Shown: positions 6,475 to 21,631, counted from the stretch's first letter. The stretch is DNA of 56,758 bases from a virus (IMGVR_UViG_3300009079_000001:1-56758), one strand, 5' to 3'. The notes: generated from the sequence alone by a model not told the origin. Program-made: numbers and translations.

Positions 6475-6500
6475 GGGTGAAACTTACAGCTTACAACGAA

Positions 6501-6872
6501 TTACAGAAGATCGTTGTCAGCTTCAGTTTCGGCTTCTTCGTCATTGGCTTCAGACGATTCAGTCTTACGACCGGCTACCTTGGCAGCATATTCATCAGCA
6601 GCTTCTTGGTTGAAGGGAACTTCTTCGCCGTCCCAAGTTTCCAGAAACTTACGGAACCTACCGATAGCGTTGTTTGCCTGAGCAACAGCACGACCAGTCA
6701 GGCCATTAGCATTGATGTATGCTTGAACGTCATCAGGAATTACTTCACTGAGGAATTCGCCAGCATCAATACGAGCTTGATGACGTTCGGCAGCTTCCAG
6801 AGTTTTGAAGGTTTTGCCATCTTCTGTGGCATAGACTTCTACCTGTACAGCTTGTGCTTGAATCTTCGACAT
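6501..6872 (-). CDS. Hypothetical protein with acidic tail
   Basis: AGGAG RBS, strongly biased codons, followed by terminator. Confidence 0.85.
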   Translation of the reverse strand: MSKIQAQAVQVEVYATEDGKTFKTLEAAERHQARIDAGEFLSEVIPDDVQAYINANGLTGRAVAQANNAIGRFRKFLETWDGEEVPFNQEAADEYAAKVAGRKTESSEANDEEAETEADNDLL

Positions 6873-6938
6873 AGATATTCTCCTATAGGGAATAGGGTTC
6901 TCACCCTTAGTAATGAGGACTAATGCCCTCGTTAGTTA

Positions 6939-7679
6939 CTAGATAGATACACCTAGTAGTTCTCTCATTTCACCAACAGCATATTTCTGAGCAGCTATAC
7001 TACCACGCAGTGCCATTAGTGCAAAGTCTTTAATCTGTTCTTCTTCAAGTTTCTCTAGCCCTATGGCTAATTTATGTTTAATGACAGCATGTACCTTGCC
7101 TTTATACATATATCTATTTTTGTAATTCTTCTCTTTGTACATGCAACCTGATCTCTCCAATACCCTCCGCATGAGTATGTTACGTTTTTCCCTGCTCAAT
7201 GGGGTCAAGCCAAGCATTGTAAAGGCTGTATCCAATACACTGCCAACGTCTACTATCAAGACGTTAATCTGTGCCATTTCAAAGTTTCTAATGATACGAG
7301 ACATAAGTTCAAGGTTAGCGTCAAGCTCTTTTACACTTGTCCTTAGTGCTTCCACATTGAAATTAAAGACTTGTGGAAGTGTCTGTACATCTGAATGAAC
7401 ACCGTAGATGAACGAGCGTCCTAATTCCATTGCAGCTACCATTACAACTTCAGCAGTACAATACTTCATTAGTCCAAATGGAAGAATTGTACTTTTAAAG
7501 ATGTTAATAGCTTCACGCATGGAATACATAATCCATTCATCGTCATCTATCGTTGATTTGGCTTTTCCCCAAAATACTATCTGGCCTTCTTTTGCCAGAT
7601 ATGCAGCGTTATTTGTTGTCATCCATTCTTTAATCAATTCAACAGCATAAACTTCTTCTTCCTTCATATCATACTCCAT
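6939..7679 (-). CDS. Hypothetical protein (true start possibly the second Met, 7667)
   Basis: 246-aa ORF; GGAG precedes second Met; basic C-terminal region. Confidence 0.8.
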   Translation of the reverse strand: MEYDMKEEEVYAVELIKEWMTTNNAAYLAKEGQIVFWGKAKSTIDDDEWIMYSMREAINIFKSTILPFGLMKYCTAEVVMVAAMELGRSFIYGVHSDVQTLPQVFNFNVEALRTSVKELDANLELMSRIIRNFEMAQINVLIVDVGSVLDTAFTMLGLTPLSREKRNILMRRVLERSGCMYKEKNYKNRYMYKGKVHAVIKHKLAIGLEKLEEEQIKDFALMALRGSIAAQKYAVGEMRELLGVSI

Positions 7680-7686
7680 TGCTTAA

Positions 7687-7860
7687 TAAGCAATAGTGAA
7701 GCATATCTCCAAAGGCGCATGACTTCCTCCATACTACTAGCTCAACGTCCGGCACGCTCCTAGTAGATGCTTGATAAAAATCTATAGTGGTTACGCCATT
7801 ATAAACCTTATCTTGTGGTTCCCCTTATCTGTGGTACGAGATATGCTTCCTATTACTTAC
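7687..7860 (-). ncRNA. Candidate structured non-coding RNA or leader
   Basis: 22-bp closing stem TAAGTAATAG-GAAGCATATCTC / GAGATATGCTTC-A-CTATTGCTTA, two inner hairpins, no ORF. Confidence 0.6.
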
Positions 7861-7888
7861 TATAACAAATCAACATCTATAACTGTGG

Positions 7889-7938
7889 TTCGGGAAAAGA
7901 GCTAAAGCCTCGGAAGGAACGCAGGATTTGAAGCCCGC
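7889..7938 (-). promoter_or_regulatory. Repeated motif copy A, candidate phage RNAP promoter
   Basis: Plus-strand TTC..AAAAGAGCTAAAGCC..GGAAG.AAC..GGA...GAAGCCCGC shared with 9601-9647. Confidence 0.55.
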
Positions 7939-7973
7939 CGCGAACCTCCGAGGATAACACGCTTACAAAGCAT

Positions 7974-8213
7974 TCAAGCGTTGTAGTAGTTCAGCAGTTC
8001 ACCTTTATGATGATTGTGCTGCAATTTACTAGCACGCATTTCACGCTTGATTGCGGCTTTAAGCATAAGTTCTTTTTGAAGCTCTTTAGACTTTGGAACT
8101 TTATGCCTATAAATTAGTGTTGGGCCAAGGCTGGATATACTTATTCCATGCTTATGCCTAGAATCAAACACCATTGATCTAATTACTTGTAGCAAATTAC
8201 TAAAGTTTTTCAT
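7974..8213 (-). CDS. Hypothetical basic protein
   Basis: ATGA overlap with upstream gene. Confidence 0.65.
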   Translation of the reverse strand: MKNFSNLLQVIRSMVFDSRHKHGISISSLGPTLIYRHKVPKSKELQKELMLKAAIKREMRASKLQHNHHKGELLNYYNA

Positions 8214-8524
8214 ATGGATTTTCCATGTTCAGTTTTATGTTCGGTTTTAGGTTGAGGTGAGCCTTTAACATTATCAAAGGCAGTATTACGTGCATTAATA
8301 CTATCATCATCACCGGCAAATACATCTTCACTGTTTCCAAATGCATTCTCCCATTCTTCAGGAGTTATTCCTGTTAGAATAAACTCCCTATGGTCTGCTG
8401 AAATATCAGGCATAGCATCCTGAATATATTCTCCTTGCATCCAAGCATCTAACTGTTCTTTGGTGCAAGGAACATCAAGTGTATGCTCCTTGCCACTAAA
8501 TGGTGAACGGCGCTTAATTAACAT
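8210..8524 (-). CDS. Hypothetical phage protein
   Basis: Coupled ORF; IQDAMP...REFILTGITPEEW resembles a recurring small phage protein family. Confidence 0.8.
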   Translation of the reverse strand: MLIKRRSPFSGKEHTLDVPCTKEQLDAWMQGEYIQDAMPDISADHREFILTGITPEEWENAFGNSEDVFAGDDDSINARNTAFDNVKGSPQPKTEHKTEHGKSI

Positions 8525-8753
8525 TATCTAACATTCCTTTTAATTCTTTCTTGACATCACGAGCTACTGCTCCCCGCCATGATTGTGCATTGGCTAGGAA
8601 ACGCATAACTATTTCCCTTGCAGTATCTTGGTAGTACATACCATTGATGCTGTCAAGTTCTAGCATTGCTGATACATATGGTGCAGCATATGGAGACATT
8701 CTGTTCCAACTGCCCATAATCTGTACTGCAATTACATGTAATGGTCTGGCCAT
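8514..8753 (-). CDS. Hypothetical phage protein
   Basis: Coupled ORF; FLANAQSWRG..AR..K.ELK pattern. Confidence 0.8.
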   Translation of the reverse strand: MARPLHVIAVQIMGSWNRMSPYAAPYVSAMLELDSINGMYYQDTAREIVMRFLANAQSWRGAVARDVKKELKGMLDNVN

Positions 8754-8754
8754 A

Positions 8755-8964
8755 CTATACTATACCTACAAAATCTTCAGGTTCTACAAAGCGTTTGTTA
8801 TAGCTAATTGCTTTGCGATTATGATTGTTGCGTTGTTTCTTTGACAACACCCTGTCACTGTTTTCTTTACAGTCAGTCAGGAATTTATCCAGTTTACTTT
8901 TGTTAAAACGTCTTACTTGTACATTTTCAAGTTTGGTTTGCAAATCTTCATAGTCCATAGACAT
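8755..8964 (-). CDS. Hypothetical protein
   Basis: AAGGG RBS, first gene after the repeat region. Confidence 0.65.
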   Translation of the reverse strand: MSMDYEDLQTKLENVQVRRFNKSKLDKFLTDCKENSDRVLSKKQRNNHNRKAISYNKRFVEPEDFVGIV

Positions 8965-8991
8965 ATGTTTACCCTTATAAAATAGTAATTA

Positions 8992-9136
8992 AAAAGCAAT
9001 AGTTTAGTGTCTTTTGCTTAATAGACATGTTGTATAAAAGCTATATCTAGACAACAGGACTATAGCGTTTTTCAGCTACAGCAGTTGAATTACTTGTAAA
9101 AGCAATAGTTTAGTGTCTTTTGCTCAATAGACATGT
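8992..9136 (-). repeat. Two 39-bp direct repeats (8992-9030, 9098-9136), each a predicted H-type pseudoknot
   Basis: 38/39 identical, 67-bp spacer; minus strand TGTCT/AGACA and RAGCAA/TTGCTT stems. Confidence 0.8.
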
Positions 9137-9202
9137 ACTCAATTTATTTAGGCTAGCTGAGTGAATAAAGAACTTGCCTAAGGTTCACCAACACATATAA
9201 GT

Positions 9203-9243
9203 AAAAAGCATGAAGAGTGTGTTGTTTCAAGTCTCTTCATGCT
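9203..9243 (-). terminator. Hairpin with T tract, probable terminator or processing stem
   Basis: AGCATGAAGAG...CTCTTCATGCT-TTTT just after the stop of 9262-9528. Confidence 0.6.
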
Positions 9244-9261
9244 AGTTTGTAGCTTAGTATC

Positions 9262-9528
9262 TTAGCAATACTTAGCTACATCTTCTTCAGTCATTTCTGT
9301 GTAAGCAAGACTAATGAAAGGTTGATCGTTGGCAGACTTCTTAGTCCAACCGCTGATCCAATACCACTTACCACCAACCATAGCCTTACCACGGCTATTA
9401 GGGTGACTATCTTTCATACGCTTCTCATTCTTGAAGAGTGCGCCACTGTTATTCTGGTCGTACTTAACAGTTTCTTCTGCACCAACCAGATCTTCTGCAA
9501 CTACTTCCTGCTTATTTACTTGAGTCAT
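9262..9528 (-). CDS. Small putative ssDNA-binding protein (DUF736-like)
   Basis: NSGALFKN...HP...G...VGG..YWISGW.K....FISL pattern; AAAGGA RBS. Confidence 0.6.
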   Translation of the reverse strand: MTQVNKQEVVAEDLVGAEETVKYDQNNSGALFKNEKRMKDSHPNSRGKAMVGGKWYWISGWTKKSANDQPFISLAYTEMTEEDVAKYC

Positions 9529-9600
9529 CTTTATATCCTTTCAATTACAATTGTCGGCACTATTGCCATTTACTTCATTTTACAAGGCTCTAGGCTCTTG

Positions 9601-9647
9601 TTCAAAAAGAGCTAAAGCCAAGGAAGAAACACGGAGCCGAAGCCCGC
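9601..9647 (-). promoter_or_regulatory. Repeated motif copy B, candidate phage RNAP promoter
   Basis: Closely matches 7889-7938; intergenic, about 70 bp upstream of 9528 start. Confidence 0.55.
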
Positions 9648-9653
9648 AATACC

Positions 9654-9857
9654 TTATTTACAAATCCTTGCATACTTACGGAGATAACCATCTATCTCTT
9701 CTGTTGCAATGAGATTATATGTACGAGATTTACCATTAAGAACAAAGGTATGTTTCTCAATGTCACCTGCACACATATTATCCCAAATCTCTTCCATGAT
9801 GTTATCAACTTCTTCATTGCTTGTAACTTCATGCACTGTAGCTTCCATTAACAACAC
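9654..9857 (-). CDS. Hypothetical protein
   Basis: GAGGTG RBS-like site; ATG at 9848 is an alternative start. Confidence 0.6.
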   Translation of the reverse strand: MLLMEATVHEVTSNEEVDNIMEEIWDNMCAGDIEKHTFVLNGKSRTYNLIATEEIDGYLRKYARICK

Positions 9858-9972
9858 CTCAATATATGATAACCTATATGATAACTTACAGAACTAGTAT
9901 ATGCAGTAATAGCTACAACATATATACCAAAGCAAGATGTTGCTCTGCTCTTGCTCTGTGCTTTTGATCTGT

Positions 9973-10017
9973 TTCAAATAGAGCTAATGTATTTGATGTA
10001 GTAAGAACTTGAAGCCC
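9973..10017 (-). promoter_or_regulatory. Repeated motif copy C (degenerate)
   Basis: TTCAAATAGAGCTAA and GAAGCCC at the same 30-bp offset as copy B. Confidence 0.45.
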
Positions 10018-10105
10018 TCACACATATAATTTATACATCAGCAGGATTATCTACGTTCGACCGGTATAATTTATTGCATATACTCCAGAGCAATACATAG
10101 GTAGC

Positions 10106-10585
10106 ATAGTCTGTAAGCCCCATGATTCAAGGGCTGCCATAAGACTATAGCAATATTGTATCCAATAAATTAGAAGGGCTATGATTCAAGGGCTGAAGAA
10201 GAAAGAAAAAGATTAGCAGCCCTTGTATTAATTAAAGATAAGAAAAAAGAGAGAAGCGTGGTGTGTCCGTCTACCACACTTTTCTGTATTAATTGCGAGC
10301 ACAGATTCCAAGTGTTAACAGACTTGATTCGTCTGCCAAGAGTCTAGAACATCTTGTTGGTCTACTGTAGCTTACAGAACATGACGCTCTTGATCTTGAT
10401 TTTAAGCTCTTGATCTTTTTCAGAAAGAGCTAAACTTGAAGTCTGCACGGAGTCCTTATGTTGGACTAATACCTAGCGATAGCTCACAGACTTCTAGCTT
10501 CTTTGATTCTTGATTCAACTATATATACTAATTAAATAATATATATAGGTGAATCAAGGCTGTACAAGCCCTTGATTCGTCTGCT
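10106..10585. other. Non-coding repeat/hairpin-rich region, candidate replication origin; includes motif copy D (10419-10434)
   Basis: ATGATTCAAGGGCTG x2, inverted AGCCCTTG x2, AT-rich hairpin 10510-10558, branched hairpin 10438-10494. Confidence 0.45.
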
Positions 10586-10587
10586 GC

Positions 10588-12585
10588 TTATTCGAAGAAA
10601 TATGCTCCTTCTATCTCTAACATTGATTCATTGAATACATTCTCCACAATATTCAGCTTGTCATAATCAAATCCTACTTGATCACACAAATGCTTCAATG
10701 GATTGTTATCAATGAATATAGTCTTGTAAGCTCGCTTGATACATCCTTGTAACAAGTGAACACTAGCAGCATCACAACGGAAGCAATCATGAATACTTAC
10801 AAAGCCCTTGATTCCAGCTTTCTTAGCTTCAACTGCCACAGTTCTTGCTATCAAAGCATCTAAGCCTTGAATGAAGTTGACTAGGAACGATGTTGCAAAC
10901 CTCTCAACATCATACTCATTAGTCTTTATGGTAATGCCTGTGTTATCTATCTTACTACCAAACTCAAGTATCTTTTGTGCATCATACCTGATCTCAGTAT
11001 AATCACGAGTTATCTCCTCCATACGATAACTAGCATGATCTACAACAGTACCATCAATATGTGTATAGATGATATGTGTCACATCATTACTCAAACACAT
11101 CTCCTCAATGTGTTCTGCAAAGGCTTGTTGGAAGTTGGTTATCTTAGCTCCTAATACTTTCTTAACAGCATTGATAACAAGGTCAGCACGTTGATCATCA
11201 TCTAGATCAGGATGCAGACTCAACAGCTTACTCATTAACACCTTACATCCTTTAACAGCAGGACGACCACCACTATACATGATAGCCATGTAAGCCTTCT
11301 TAATATCTTCCCTGAGAATACGATGATCTAACTTCTCAACTGTCAGGTGATATGGATCAGGTATCCTTGTGCTGCTAAAACCACAGGCTTGCAGTAATCC
11401 TAACTCATGGAACAAGATAGCATATATCTGTGTACCAGATGACTTAGCATCATCACCTATTGATATACGGCAGTCTACACTACCTTTAACAATGATCTGA
11501 GCTATATCAATACACAGTCTCACATACATGAATGGTGATTTAACTTTACAGTCATCACCCTCATTCAGATATTGTGCAAGTGCCTGAGAAGGCTTGATAG
11601 CTACGTTACGGATATAACGCTCATCAAGATACTTGTCATCACTAACACAATCTGCTAACTCTACAAGCAACTTCTTATGAGCATATGATCCAGCATGTAC
11701 AATGCTTACATTCTGTGAAGAATATAAAGCACGATTCATATCATCACCTTGTGGGTTAACACCGTATGTAGCTCTGAAGTACATACGTCCACGGTCATCC
11801 ATATCATACTCACTATAGTATGAACTTGATGGATGTAGAGATTGTGCTCCTTTCAATGTTGCAAATGCTGACAACCAAAGCTCATGTTTATATGTTAGCT
11901 TCTTAGTTGCAAGTACCACATTCATCATATGCTCATTAGTAGAGTATTCTGAACTCTGGAGATAATCACATGCTTCAACAGCTAAGATACTTGCAGCAAC
12001 CAAGTTCTTCTTGAAGTAGTGAACACGACGATCAGCAGGATCACTTGATGTAAGTGGGCTGAACTTCATTCCCTTCATTATCAAGCTCTTGAACTTAGTG
12101 CTAGGGATGAAGCCATAATCCTCATCCTCTTGCAAGAAGCCACAAGTAGCAAGATACTCCCTTACTGGTTGAGATGCTATCTCTGTCTCCCTCCAGTTAA
12201 ACTTATCACGATTCTTCTTAATGAAGTAATCAAGATACTCGAAGTACTCAGCCTCAAGATGATGTAGTTCATCAGCTTCTTTGCAGTTATATATTGTGGC
12301 AAATACTGCCAAGGCCATTATCTGCCTCTCCACAATATTGAACACAAAGAACTCCTCTCTCCTCATAATACTCACGAAGATGCTAGGTACAGTAGATTGA
12401 ATCATGAACTCATAGTTCTTCTCTACTGTTGTCTCCTCGAAGTGTATGGTACGAAGATCATCAACTTCGATCTTGTTGATCTTGTTGACTTTGTTAGCTG
12501 CTTTCGCAGACGCCAGTGTTAATGCTTTCATAGGTGTTGCTCCTTTAGTTACAGTTGAAGTTACAGTGTTGAATACATTATTCAT
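10588..12585 (-). CDS. Single-subunit DNA-directed RNA polymerase 1 (early position)
   Basis: DDRGRMY, GVNPQG, motif A DAKSSGTQ, motif B REDIKKAYMAIMYS, NFIQGLDA, motif C SIHDCF. Confidence 0.93.
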   Translation of the reverse strand: MNNVFNTVTSTVTKGATPMKALTLASAKAANKVNKINKIEVDDLRTIHFEETTVEKNYEFMIQSTVPSIFVSIMRREEFFVFNIVERQIMALAVFATIYNCKEADELHHLEAEYFEYLDYFIKKNRDKFNWRETEIASQPVREYLATCGFLQEDEDYGFIPSTKFKSLIMKGMKFSPLTSSDPADRRVHYFKKNLVAASILAVEACDYLQSSEYSTNEHMMNVVLATKKLTYKHELWLSAFATLKGAQSLHPSSSYYSEYDMDDRGRMYFRATYGVNPQGDDMNRALYSSQNVSIVHAGSYAHKKLLVELADCVSDDKYLDERYIRNVAIKPSQALAQYLNEGDDCKVKSPFMYVRLCIDIAQIIVKGSVDCRISIGDDAKSSGTQIYAILFHELGLLQACGFSSTRIPDPYHLTVEKLDHRILREDIKKAYMAIMYSGGRPAVKGCKVLMSKLLSLHPDLDDDQRADLVINAVKKVLGAKITNFQQAFAEHIEEMCLSNDVTHIIYTHIDGTVVDHASYRMEEITRDYTEIRYDAQKILEFGSKIDNTGITIKTNEYDVERFATSFLVNFIQGLDALIARTVAVEAKKAGIKGFVSIHDCFRCDAASVHLLQGCIKRAYKTIFIDNNPLKHLCDQVGFDYDKLNIVENVFNESMLEIEGAYFFE

Positions 12586-13457: not shown

Positions 13458-13546
13458 TACTTAGTCACCTTACGTAGAGTGTTAATAACAACAACACTAA
13501 TTGGATAAGACGCAACAACACACATAGCCAAGATTGCAATAGTCAT
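13457..13546 (-). CDS. Small hydrophobic peptide (29 aa), probable first gene of the genome
   Basis: Hand-translated; TAAGGAG RBS; TAATG coupling to next ORF. Confidence 0.65.
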   Translation of the reverse strand: MTIAILAMCVVASYPISVVVINTLRKVTK

Positions 13547-13643
13547 ATGTTTCTCCTTAAGTACAACACGTATACATTGTGTATACATACATTGTACAAA
13601 ACCTGAGTATATAGCAAAAGAGTCTTAAGAGACTCCTTATACC

Positions 13644-13821
13644 AGACACCCATAGTCGGACACACACTGTATTTTATTTTTTATTTAAAACACACATACT
13701 GTATTTTTATTTTTATTTAGGACACACACACCGTATTTATAAAAAATTTTACAAACGCTAAAGGACACACGTGGCTTCAGCCACTACTACACACTACACA
13801 CACGGGATTTTAAAATTTTTT
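13644..13821. repeat. Degenerate tandem repeats GGACACAC(AC)-YGTATTT plus A/T tracts
   Basis: About 5 units at 31-43 bp spacing in the gap between late and early regions. Confidence 0.75.
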
Positions 13822-13956
13822 GCGACTGCGGAAAAAAGACATTGTATCAAGGGCTAAAAAAAAATTTTTTATAACACAGACTATCTACTATATGTAATAC
13901 TATATAATTATATTGGTCGATCTTAACTTTGGAAAAGATTATGCAATAACACTGTA

Positions 13957-14017
13957 GGAGGGAGCTAAAAAATATATTCTGAGCGTAAGCGAAAGAATAT
14001 ATTCTTTAGGTCACTCC
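13957..14017. other. Long imperfect hairpin with GAGCGTAAGCGAA apex
   Basis: GGAG..CTAAA.AATATATTCT / AGAATATATT.TTTAG..CTCC arms. Confidence 0.65.
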
Positions 14018-14083
14018 GTAACAAATATAGATTATAAACAAAAGAAAGAAGAAGAAGAGCTTTCTTTTTATAATATTGAAATG

Positions 14084-14113
14084 GGAAAAGCTCCTTTTGG
14101 AGGGAGCTTTTCC
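14084..14113. terminator. Strong hairpin, likely late-transcript terminator
   Basis: GGAAAAGCTCC...GGAGCTTTTCC downstream of the last late gene. Confidence 0.55.
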
Positions 14114-14241
14114 TTATTTCATAAGTTACAATATTGTTAAAATACTATAATAGTATTGTTCACTTTTTTATTTAAAAGCTTTTTTAAGGCTCTTTTTCAC
14201 TCATTTTTCCCAAAAATAGTTAATATTTAGCTAAATATTCC

Positions 14242-14499
14242 TTACTTTTGAGCGGCTTTTTGCAGTAAAACTTCCAGTGCGCGAGAGGTAACTTCTGCAG
14301 AATTCTGGCTTGCAATCAAAGCATCATCAGCAGTTTGTTGTGCTACAGCAATTTTCTGATCTTGTACAGCTTGTTGTGCAGCAACTTTGTCACGATAAGA
14401 AACAAATTCACCTTGAACCTTTTCTACGTCACCGTTAGTTGCACAGCCAGCCAAAACCATAGTTGCTACCAGAGCCATTGCAGTCATAAATACTTTCAT
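14242..14499 (-). CDS. OprI/Lpp-like alanine-zipper outer-membrane lipoprotein
   Basis: Lipobox LAGC, Ala/Gln coiled coil (AQQTADDA), C-terminus RALEVLLQKAAQK ending in Lys. Confidence 0.75.
   Translation of the reverse strand: MKVFMTAMALVATMVLAGCATNGDVEKVQGEFVSYRDKVAAQQAVQDQKIAVAQQTADDALIASQNSAEVTSRALEVLLQKAAQK

Positions 14500-16600: not shown

Positions 16601-16617
<17 letters not shown>
16117..16617 (-). CDS. Putative tail fibre tip adhesin / receptor-binding protein
   Basis: MALPSSG...ISIANFHGK N-terminal attachment-type motif; aromatic/Gly-rich; directly after long fibre. Confidence 0.55.

Positions 16618-21631
<5,014 letters not shown>

Follow-up and report, generated by a model that had tools for sequence, protein, structure and literature searches.

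A conserved sense-strand RNA structure upstream of the phrog_13087 gene in uncultured marine Chaseviridae-like phages, possibly an RNase III processing leader

The virus record IMGVR_UViG_3300009079_000001 (1-56758; in the following the window, i.e. the whole stretch that was analysed) is a complete phage genome of 56,758 bp with terminal repeats of 123 bp. In the stretches examined for reading frames (4-12 kb and 12.5-16.8 kb), all long ones lie on the minus strand. On this strand, between a gene of 79 amino acids (aa) and a gene of the family phrog_13087, is the element described here (7687-7860). In the order of transcription, the stop codon of the 79-aa gene (7974) is followed by a hairpin rich in G+C (7908-7953). 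Next come a promoter-like motif and the 5' arm of a long closing helix, and the 3' arm of this helix ends just in front of the phrog_13087 gene. This gene (PHROG E-value 1.1e-36) occupies a frame of 246 aa at 6939-7679. The 3' arm ends 5 nt before the first ATG of the frame (7679) and 17 nt before a second one (7667), which is the likelier start because the homologues in the databases are called at 242 aa and a GGAG precedes it. The gene would then extend over 6939-7667, with the Shine-Dalgarno sequence GGAG at 7674-7677 and the probable start codon at 7665-7667 (together 7665-7677), and the base of the helix lies 7 nt from the GGAG. An upstream open reading frame (ORF) of 22 codons that ends at the gene start in the window was considered as well and rejected, as it is not conserved in the relatives.

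All sequence features that an earlier note on this DNA had listed for the element are present on the minus strand. The closing helix (P1) comprises 22 bp with one bulged A within 7687-7860 and grows to 25 bp with its flanks, where the 5' arm at 7838-7862 pairs with the 3' arm at 7684-7709 (bulged A at 7697) around an interior of about 127 nt. Both arms were recovered from the sequence, by folding and in a helix scan. The 25-bp helix is A+U-rich, with G-C pairs at 7 of its 25 positions and two G-U pairs (G7860-U7686 and U7855-G7691). The strand asymmetry that had been claimed also holds: the plus strand allows a helix of only 17 bp at the element and folds more weakly (-49.0 kcal/mol, z -4.13), whereas the 174-nt element on the minus strand reaches -59.2 kcal/mol (z -5.34), and none of 200 shuffled sequences folded as well. 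Among the 61 predicted pairs of the window fold, seven are G-U pairs. The helix scan covered the whole genome on both strands; G-U pairs and a single bulge were permitted, and the arms could be separated by as much as 330 nt. The 25-bp helix proved to be the longest of the genome on either strand, followed by helices of 21 bp (plus strand) and 20 bp (minus strand). In ten block-shuffled genomes the longest helices measured 19-23 bp, and not a single one of the ten reached 25 bp.

Inside the closing helix, the tandem repeats, the two hairpins and the two proposed pseudoknot words named by the earlier note were all found again. Both hairpins appear in the minimum-energy fold and in the centroid fold. 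P2 (7773-7812) has the form GAUAAGGUUUAUAAUGG-CGUAA-CCACUAUAGAUUUUUAUC with the core TATAATGG/CCACTATA at 7783-7803, and P3 (7730-7770), CUACUAG...CUAGUAG, has its arms CTACTAG/CTAGTAG at 7734-7766 and an inner GCGUG/CGUUG stem. A third hairpin, P4 (7711-7729), is small and weak; the minimum-energy fold contains it, the centroid fold of the interior does not, and it is missing from the relatives. It holds the UGCGCC (TGCGCC at 7714-7719) that would pair with GGCGTA (7792-7797) in the putative pseudoknot. The tandem ACCACA(A)GATAAGG repeats (7806-7835) consist of the copies ACCACAGATAAGG at 7823-7835 and ACCACAAGATAAGG at 7806-7819 and are mostly unpaired in the predicted fold, with the second GAUAAGG forming the base of P2. 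At up to 2 mismatches, the genome holds no further copies of this repeat beyond chance. The word AAGCATCT, common to the elements of the window and of the relatives, is not specific for the element because it is enriched genome-wide on both strands (15 seen versus 3.5 expected). Scanning for sigma-70 promoters and terminators gave no match inside the element.

Close relatives of the 242-aa protein (60-64% identity) were found in metagenomes only. One metagenome scan yielded eight loci (L004-L011), of which L004 stems from the same phage and carries an element identical to the window's, and L009 holds a remote homologue (31% identity) whose upstream sequence is different. Two loci (L005 and L008) contain only the 3' part of the upstream region, and four (L006, L007, L010 and L011) contain it completely, with a neighbour protein 61-62% identical to that of the window. 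All four complete relatives show the same series of stop codon, G+C-rich hairpin, closing helix of 18-19 bp, two long irregular hairpins, 3' arm and gene. In their predicted fold the two hairpins are joined in a three-way junction, and a conserved spacer of about 40 nt lies between the 3' arm and the gene. Their gene order equals that of the window: the gene of the MLIKRRSP protein, a small basic gene, the hairpin, the closing helix around about 130 nt and the 242-aa gene. The counterpart of the tandem repeats is a single GGTGGATAAG. Furthermore, a hairpin loop GGUUAG in the relatives is complementary to a downstream CUAACC, and this pair is invariant. In L006 the small basic upstream gene is missing, and the element still lies directly upstream of the 242-aa gene. 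The MLIKRRSP frame of this locus (L006 619-828) ends in ...NAIK, the C-terminal residues of the small basic protein of L010, and from the sequence this looks like a deletion that fused both frames.

Further searches added little to this set. In IMG/VR, the 242-aa protein alone and its homologues P0010 and P0011 (41-43% identity) retrieved no relatives, and a close alignment of the protein retrieved one weak fragment. The T7-type primase-helicase of the phage (2722-4425) led to one fragment without the 242-aa gene. The MLIKRRSP protein led to five loci that belong to other phages, and tblastn detected no homologue of the 242-aa protein in them. No further relatives were found in the genome_contigs collection.

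Covariation was analysed for the four complete relatives, using a MAFFT alignment and the pairs predicted by RNAalifold (53 pairs). Standard pairs occupy 96.7% of the cells, compared with 29-45% when the partners are slid by 1-3 columns. In 7 of the 53 pairs both sides have changed with pairing kept, a number reached by none of 500 shuffles, a control that ignores the relatedness of the sequences. Four of these compensated pairs are located in P1 and two in the outer stem of the second hairpin (P3), all of them in L010; the remaining one lies in P2 of L007. In addition, four G-U pairs in the first hairpin (P2) do not vary at all, whereas further pairs alternate between G-C and G-U. The compensatory changes and the conserved G-U pairs therefore point to a fold of the sense-strand RNA. 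The distal stem of the second hairpin seems broken in L011 through a MAFFT misalignment of a replaced loop; L011 folds a longer stem, and its interior alone is more stable than expected by chance (z -3.27).

None of this corresponds to a family in Rfam. Searching 7400-8300 against Rfam 15 at E-values up to 10 gave six matches, none of them overlapping 7687-7860, the whole window at gathering score gave a tRNA only, and the four relatives had no match at E-values up to 1. Nor is such an element described in the titles and opening lines of abstracts of the papers that word searches on Chaseviridae promoters and polymerases and on phage RNase III returned. We conclude that the element is a real, conserved RNA structure of the sense strand without an Rfam family, present in a narrow clade of uncultured marine Chaseviridae-like phages.

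The variation among the relatives follows the helices. L006 and L007 differ at 11 positions clustered in and next to the first hairpin, and at 3 positions in the following 1260 nt of the alignment, which stops before a divergence near the end of the L006 contig. For L010 and L011, identity amounts to 98.6% over the gene's first 138 nt and to 80.6% over the element. On deeper branches conservation is higher in the element than in the gene, as for L006 and L011, which share 72% of the positions over the same part of the gene and 90% over the element. Each helix exists in two versions that preserve pairing and that are assorted independently of the flanking genes. This helix-by-helix variation may have arisen by recombination among unsampled variants or by fast compensatory evolution.

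For a placement of the phage, we compared it with cultured phages. A blastn search gave no match among them, and the relatives of the phrog_13087 frame are about 30% identical (109 records, tblastn). The four cultured records that were opened are Chaseviridae infecting E. coli, Shewanella, Vibrio and Aeromonas. Chaseviridae are characterised in their ICTV profile as myoviruses of 52-56 kb that encode an RNA polymerase as in Autographiviridae (PMC12842549). Based on these homologues and the family traits, the phage is an uncultured marine virus that is distantly related to Chaseviridae; the 13 runs in which part of the stretch occurs carry marine or estuary metagenome labels, and one of them is RNA. 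The upstream region of the homologue is built differently in the cultured phages. In those of E. coli and Aeromonas, the gene abuts or overlaps the preceding gene without a gap, and in the Vibrio phage the gap is taken up by an ORF that lacks an annotation. A gap of 143 nt is present in the Shewanella phage, with small hairpins and no long closing helix. In Vibrio phage vB_VpaM_VPs20, the open frame in the gap comprises 85 codons (L014 2236-2490), and the phrog_13087 homologue is unannotated, too.

Between the window's element and those of the metagenomic relatives no sequence is conserved. The words GATAAG and AAGCATCT and a TATAAT...TATAG hairpin occur in both forms, in a different order. 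The size from arm to arm is 179 nt in the window versus about 165 nt in the relatives, and position, size and architecture agree in both. The 79 nt upstream of the gene in the partial locus L005 resemble both forms, the 3' arm of the window with CTTCACTA... and the spacer of the relatives with ATTGTAAA.GGG. Common descent of the two forms is likely but unproven.

Upstream of the element, the G+C-rich hairpin that follows the stop of the 79-aa gene (CCTCGGAGG ... CCTTCCGAGG) resembles a terminator in sequence and predicted fold. A related copy is located at 9605-9647 (82% identity over 44 nt), and the relatives carry a different hairpin, GTGCCTTCGTAAGAGGGCAC, in the same position. The promoter-like motif, copy A, reads GGCTTTAGCTCTTTTCCCGAACCACAG (7883-7909), and the distance from the extended motif to the 5' arm is 20 nt. 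Its part GGCTTTAGCTCTTTT (7895-7909) occurs exactly at 7895 and at 9605, so that the unit of hairpin plus motif recurs at 9605-9647. The core TTAGCTCTNTNTGAA has three exact copies on the minus strand, at 9601, 9973 and 10419 (within 9601-10433), which occupy the non-coding stretch after the polymerase gene. When mismatches were allowed, the core was not enriched in the whole genome (5 versus 3.2 expected). In the relatives, ATTAGCTCG(N4)TGAAT is present twice in the early region. An annotated Chaseviridae phage of E. coli has predicted GJ1-type promoters in a similar context, a terminator followed by CTTTAGTCTGAAACATTAGT. Judged from these repeats, it is a reasonable inference that copy A is a candidate promoter.

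The sequence around this motif varies between strains. L004 differs from the window only in the 25 nt before the 5' arm (7861-7885), by an indel and three substitutions, and one metagenome contig departs from the window sequence from 7861 on. Contigs of two metagenome runs leave the window at 8049, inside the 79-aa gene, and enter the same unlike sequence, which suggests a strain-variable or mosaic junction at this position.

As the preferred reading, with a rough probability of 0.45, we propose that the element acts in cis as the structured leader RNA of the phrog_13087 gene and that its long stem serves as an RNase III processing stalk. According to the description of RNase III in PMC3867540, the idealised substrate of the E. 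coli enzyme is a helix of 22 bp, G-C pairs at positions 2 and 4 of the proximal box are inhibitory, and the polycistronic early precursor of T7 carries five RNase III signals (PMC3867540). The closing helix has this length, with 22 bp, or 25 bp including its flanks. Several of the T7 sites reportedly come immediately behind a phage promoter and ahead of the first gene served, and the window shows this order as well. The window encodes a T7-type single-subunit RNA polymerase (10588-12585) and a T7-type primase-helicase, and together with the genes on one strand and the repeated upstream motif, the context fits a leader in the style of T7. Since the sequence turns over between the lineages while the helices are kept, the role would fit double-strandedness and not specific nucleotides. 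The earlier note had listed a translational leader and an RNase III-excised small RNA among its explanations; the length of 22 bp, the position and the compensatory changes in the relatives lend the reading as a structured leader or putative RNase III substrate indirect support.

The proposed mechanism would run as follows. Transcription might begin at the promoter-like motif, 20 nt ahead of the helix, or reach the element by read-through of the upstream genes. Sequences about 130 nt apart would then pair into the A+U-rich helix of 22-25 bp, which in the relatives would have 18-19 bp and stack on the two long hairpins. The RNase III of the host would cut this helix, as at the promoter-proximal processing signals of T7, and the cut would part the downstream message from the upstream RNA and give it a defined 5' end near the ribosome-binding site. 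With cuts on both strands, the branched interior of about 150 nt would be set free, like an rRNA from its precursor. In the window only, cleavage or the choice between pairing partners of the arm could also affect translation. Thus transcription from the motif, cleavage by RNase III and effects on translation or stability are all put forward here as conditional steps. The role is most likely ordinary in kind, a leader for processing or control, and unusual in form. The processing of long phage transcripts by host RNase III, classic in T7, has received little attention in the Chaseviridae-like myoviruses, which likewise encode a T7-type polymerase, or in uncultured marine phages. If the reading is correct, a stalk with an insert would show how a gene can be insulated from its transcriptional context, and the design could supply engineering with a small insulator of natural origin. 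Should the insert prove to be a functional RNA, it would represent an undescribed family of phage RNA.

Comparison with known systems shows partial likeness in each case. The RNase III signals of T7 (R1.1 and others) share the single-subunit polymerase, the polycistronic transcription in one direction and a double-stranded intercistronic structure of about two helix turns just upstream of a gene. They differ in being single hairpins with an internal loop that are cut once, whereas the element has a near-perfect helix with a branched interior of about 130 nt. In the RNase III stalks of rRNA operons (16S and 23S), distant flanks likewise pair into a long helix, and double cleavage of this flanking helix excises a structured RNA from a longer transcript. 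Here, in contrast, the insert has about 130 nt, lacks conserved sequence and lies in the leader of a phage mRNA. The pRNA of phi29 likewise comes from a phage, measures about 174 nt and combines a long 5'/3' helix with a three-way junction that bears two hairpins, and the complementary GGUUAG loop and CUAACC of the relatives may be a further parallel. In contrast to pRNA, the element has no match to any Rfam family, and the phage is not phi29-like. Finally, the N-leader of lambda and other leaders controlled by RNase III are similar in having a structure near the ribosome-binding site whose cleavage could change translation. They show no likeness in sequence or structure, and the proximity to the ribosome-binding site applies to the window lineage only.

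A number of points weigh against the processing leader. The RNase III signals of T7 are single hairpins of about 50-60 nt and not stalks around a branched insert of 130 nt. The helix of the relatives, with 18-19 bp, falls short of the ideal 22 bp, even if it is continued by stacked hairpins. Moreover, the relatives lack the promoter-like motif between hairpin and helix, so the arrangement of promoter and stalk is not general. The cultured relatives carry the gene without such a leader. The interior of the window's element alone (7711-7837) does not fold better than chance (z -0.73, equalled by 48 of 200 shuffles), and the statistical signal in the window is therefore that of the closing helix and not of the inner hairpins. 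A covariance model built from the four relatives and run without filters over 6500-11000 did not detect the window's element; its best match there covered the 3' arm only (7660-7710, 5.2 bits, E-value 0.85). Homology of both forms thus rests on position in the gene order, size and the partial locus L005. The covariation comes from four sequences only, which are 81-93% identical to each other, and the shuffles are uncorrected for this relatedness. The metatranscriptome match consists of a single contig of 173 nt inside the coding region (7396-7568) and does not cover the element.

The product of the 242-aa gene bears on several of the other readings. It has no match in Pfam, and the neighbouring proteins have no Pfam family either. 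The AlphaFold2 model, based on 53 homologues (predicted local distance difference test, pLDDT, 92; predicted template modelling score, pTM, 0.59), comprises two domains, of which the C-terminal half resembles a winged helix. Foldseek against the PDB gave no match at an E-value of 0.001 or better. In a wide structural search, residues 115-200 matched winged-helix domains (Orc/Cdc6, RFX, cullin) with Z 6-6.9, and residues 1-104 matched the start of the C-terminal region of NrS-1 polymerase with Z 6.0, scores of a size that is commonly seen. Among predicted viral structures, the best non-orthologous matches were two NrS-1 polymerase-like helicase domain proteins (E-values 2.5e-4 and 6.3e-4). A sequence profile search of the PDB returned only designed repeat proteins and SurA, at E-values of 0.002 or worse, and the ESM Atlas contained no usable match. 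Going by the model, the protein looks like a DNA-binding accessory of replication. This DNA-binding look counts against the suggestion of the earlier note that the RNA is the partner of the adjacent protein, and keeps a role of the element at the DNA level alive. The RNA-partner suggestion finds no support in the cultured Chaseviridae, either, where the family occurs without intergenic space upstream.

Among the competing explanations, a structured leader that works without RNase III is the most likely one, although rather unlikely in itself. As a 5' domain it could shield the message from 5'-end-dependent decay or set the translation rate; transcripts with the 5' arm would be translated, and those without it would be silenced by pairing of the 3' arm with the Shine-Dalgarno sequence. 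All structural and conservation evidence fits this explanation equally well, including the position of the element directly upstream of the 242-aa gene in L006. The window also contains an alternative hairpin of the P1 3' arm with the Shine-Dalgarno and first AUG region (inverted repeat I19, 7666-7706), with 20 nt, 75% complementarity and -11.7 kcal/mol, which was reached by 2 of 300 shuffles. However, this hairpin is absent from all three relatives tested (L006, L010 and L011), and steric control of the ribosome site is not general because the helix of the relatives is about 40 nt away from the start codon. In addition, if the host is a gammaproteobacterium, its RNase III could presumably not easily be kept away from 22-25 perfect pairs. 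Somewhat less likely is a stand-alone small RNA, for which the stalk would serve only for excision or as a terminal stem and the branched interior, about 130-150 nt long, would act in trans, for instance as a decoy or as a regulator in host takeover. At the same low level of likelihood, the excised product can be pictured as a three-way-junction RNA of about 150 nt, a decoy against host defence or a takeover regulator, whose helices diversify rapidly with the structure preserved; such diversification would explain both the helix-by-helix differences between strains and the missing shared sequence between the lineages, and the RNA would belong to a new class of phage non-coding RNA. The inner hairpins of the relatives, with their compensatory changes, G-U pairs and the stability of the L011 interior, are in line with this, and near-identical strains that differ per helix with pairing kept hint at selection on the RNA. 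On the other hand, sequence and topology of the interior are not shared between the window and the relatives, the window's interior does not exceed chance, a terminator on the 3' side is missing and the RNA contig covers coding region only. The complement of the tandem repeat was not found in the phage genome either; the three matches at up to 2 mismatches correspond to chance and all share the strand of the repeat.

An element that acts as DNA is improbable in our view. It would be a replication origin or a single-strand initiation signal beside an initiator gene, bound by the winged-helix protein and possibly activated by transcription, as at the primary origin of T7, which is located at promoters downstream of gene 1. 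The structural matches of residues 115-200 to winged-helix domains including Orc/Cdc6 (Z 6.2-6.5) and of the whole model to NrS-1-like helicase-domain proteins (E-value 2.5e-4) speak for it, as do the two direct repeats and the long A+T-rich inverted repeat just upstream of the gene. But winged-helix matches at such Z are common, the helices depend on G-U pairs and lose much of their strength on the opposite strand, the compensatory changes extend to the inner hairpins, and the cultured phages carry the same protein without the element upstream. The direct repeats number two in the window and one in the relatives; with the element absent at the gene in the cultured phages, an origin of the iteron type, with at least three conserved direct repeats, was rejected. 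A functionless sequence, either left over from a miniature inverted-repeat mobile element or inserted neutrally as a palindrome, is very improbable. The arms of 18-25 bp around about 130 bp do have the usual shape of such elements, and the sequence is wholly different between the lineages. Against this, the element is present in a single copy in the genome, neither arm was found elsewhere in IMG/VR by an exact scan, and a target-site duplication is not seen at the ends. It keeps its position and size in every lineage that was sampled, its inner helices show compensatory changes and G-U pairs, and between L006 and L011 it is more conserved than the neighbouring gene. Hardly credible is a sponge RNA titrating CsrA/RsmA, as the earlier note had suggested. 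The seven GGA triplets it had counted are indeed present, compared with a genome background of 2.3 +/- 1.6 per 174 nt, and at least seven occur in 1.3% of 1952 segments of 174 nt on the same strand. Only one of the seven, however, lies in an apical loop of the minimum-energy fold, the remainder being in or beside stems; the relatives have 4-5, no terminator was seen, and none of the Rfam matches in 7400-8300 at E-values up to 10 is a Csr or Rsm family. Y RNA/YrlA, which would be expected beside a Ro60/Rsr gene, was rejected as well, with no Rfam match and no Pfam family for the neighbouring proteins.

Beyond the element, the region between the 79-aa gene and the polymerase gene holds further repeats. 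Two direct repeats of 39 nt (8992-9030 and 9098-9136) are 97% identical, lie 106 nt apart upstream of a 69-aa gene (8755-8964), and can each form a small hairpin (AAGCAAAAG / CTATTGCTT). The 730 nt after the RNA polymerase gene (9858-10587) contain no minus-strand ORF of at least 40 aa. This stretch carries two exact TTAGCTCTNTNTGAA cores, with the third just downstream (9601-9615), and repeated GAATCAAG/ATCAAGA words. It also includes a near-perfect A+T-rich palindrome at 10509-10558, with arms of 25 nt, 88% complementarity and no spacer. As far as the sequence goes, the stretch may serve in regulation or as an origin. In the E. coli phage SA91KD, two annotated promoters are followed by a similar stretch, about 770 nt long, without an annotated gene.

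The genome also codes for a RadC-like protein and one tRNA-Arg. A frame of 1676 aa (16601-21631) contains dozens of repeats with a period of 9 nt at 18.1-19.6 kb, which give it a collagen-type Gly-X-Y look, and it is probably a protein of the tail-fibre type. In the early region, a stretch of about 780 nt (13458-14241) has no ORF of at least 45 aa and features long A/T runs and palindromes at 13957-14017 and 14211-14250. Inside this ORF-poor stretch, a long-range helix made up of A and U only was predicted at 13731-13879 (z -3.0).

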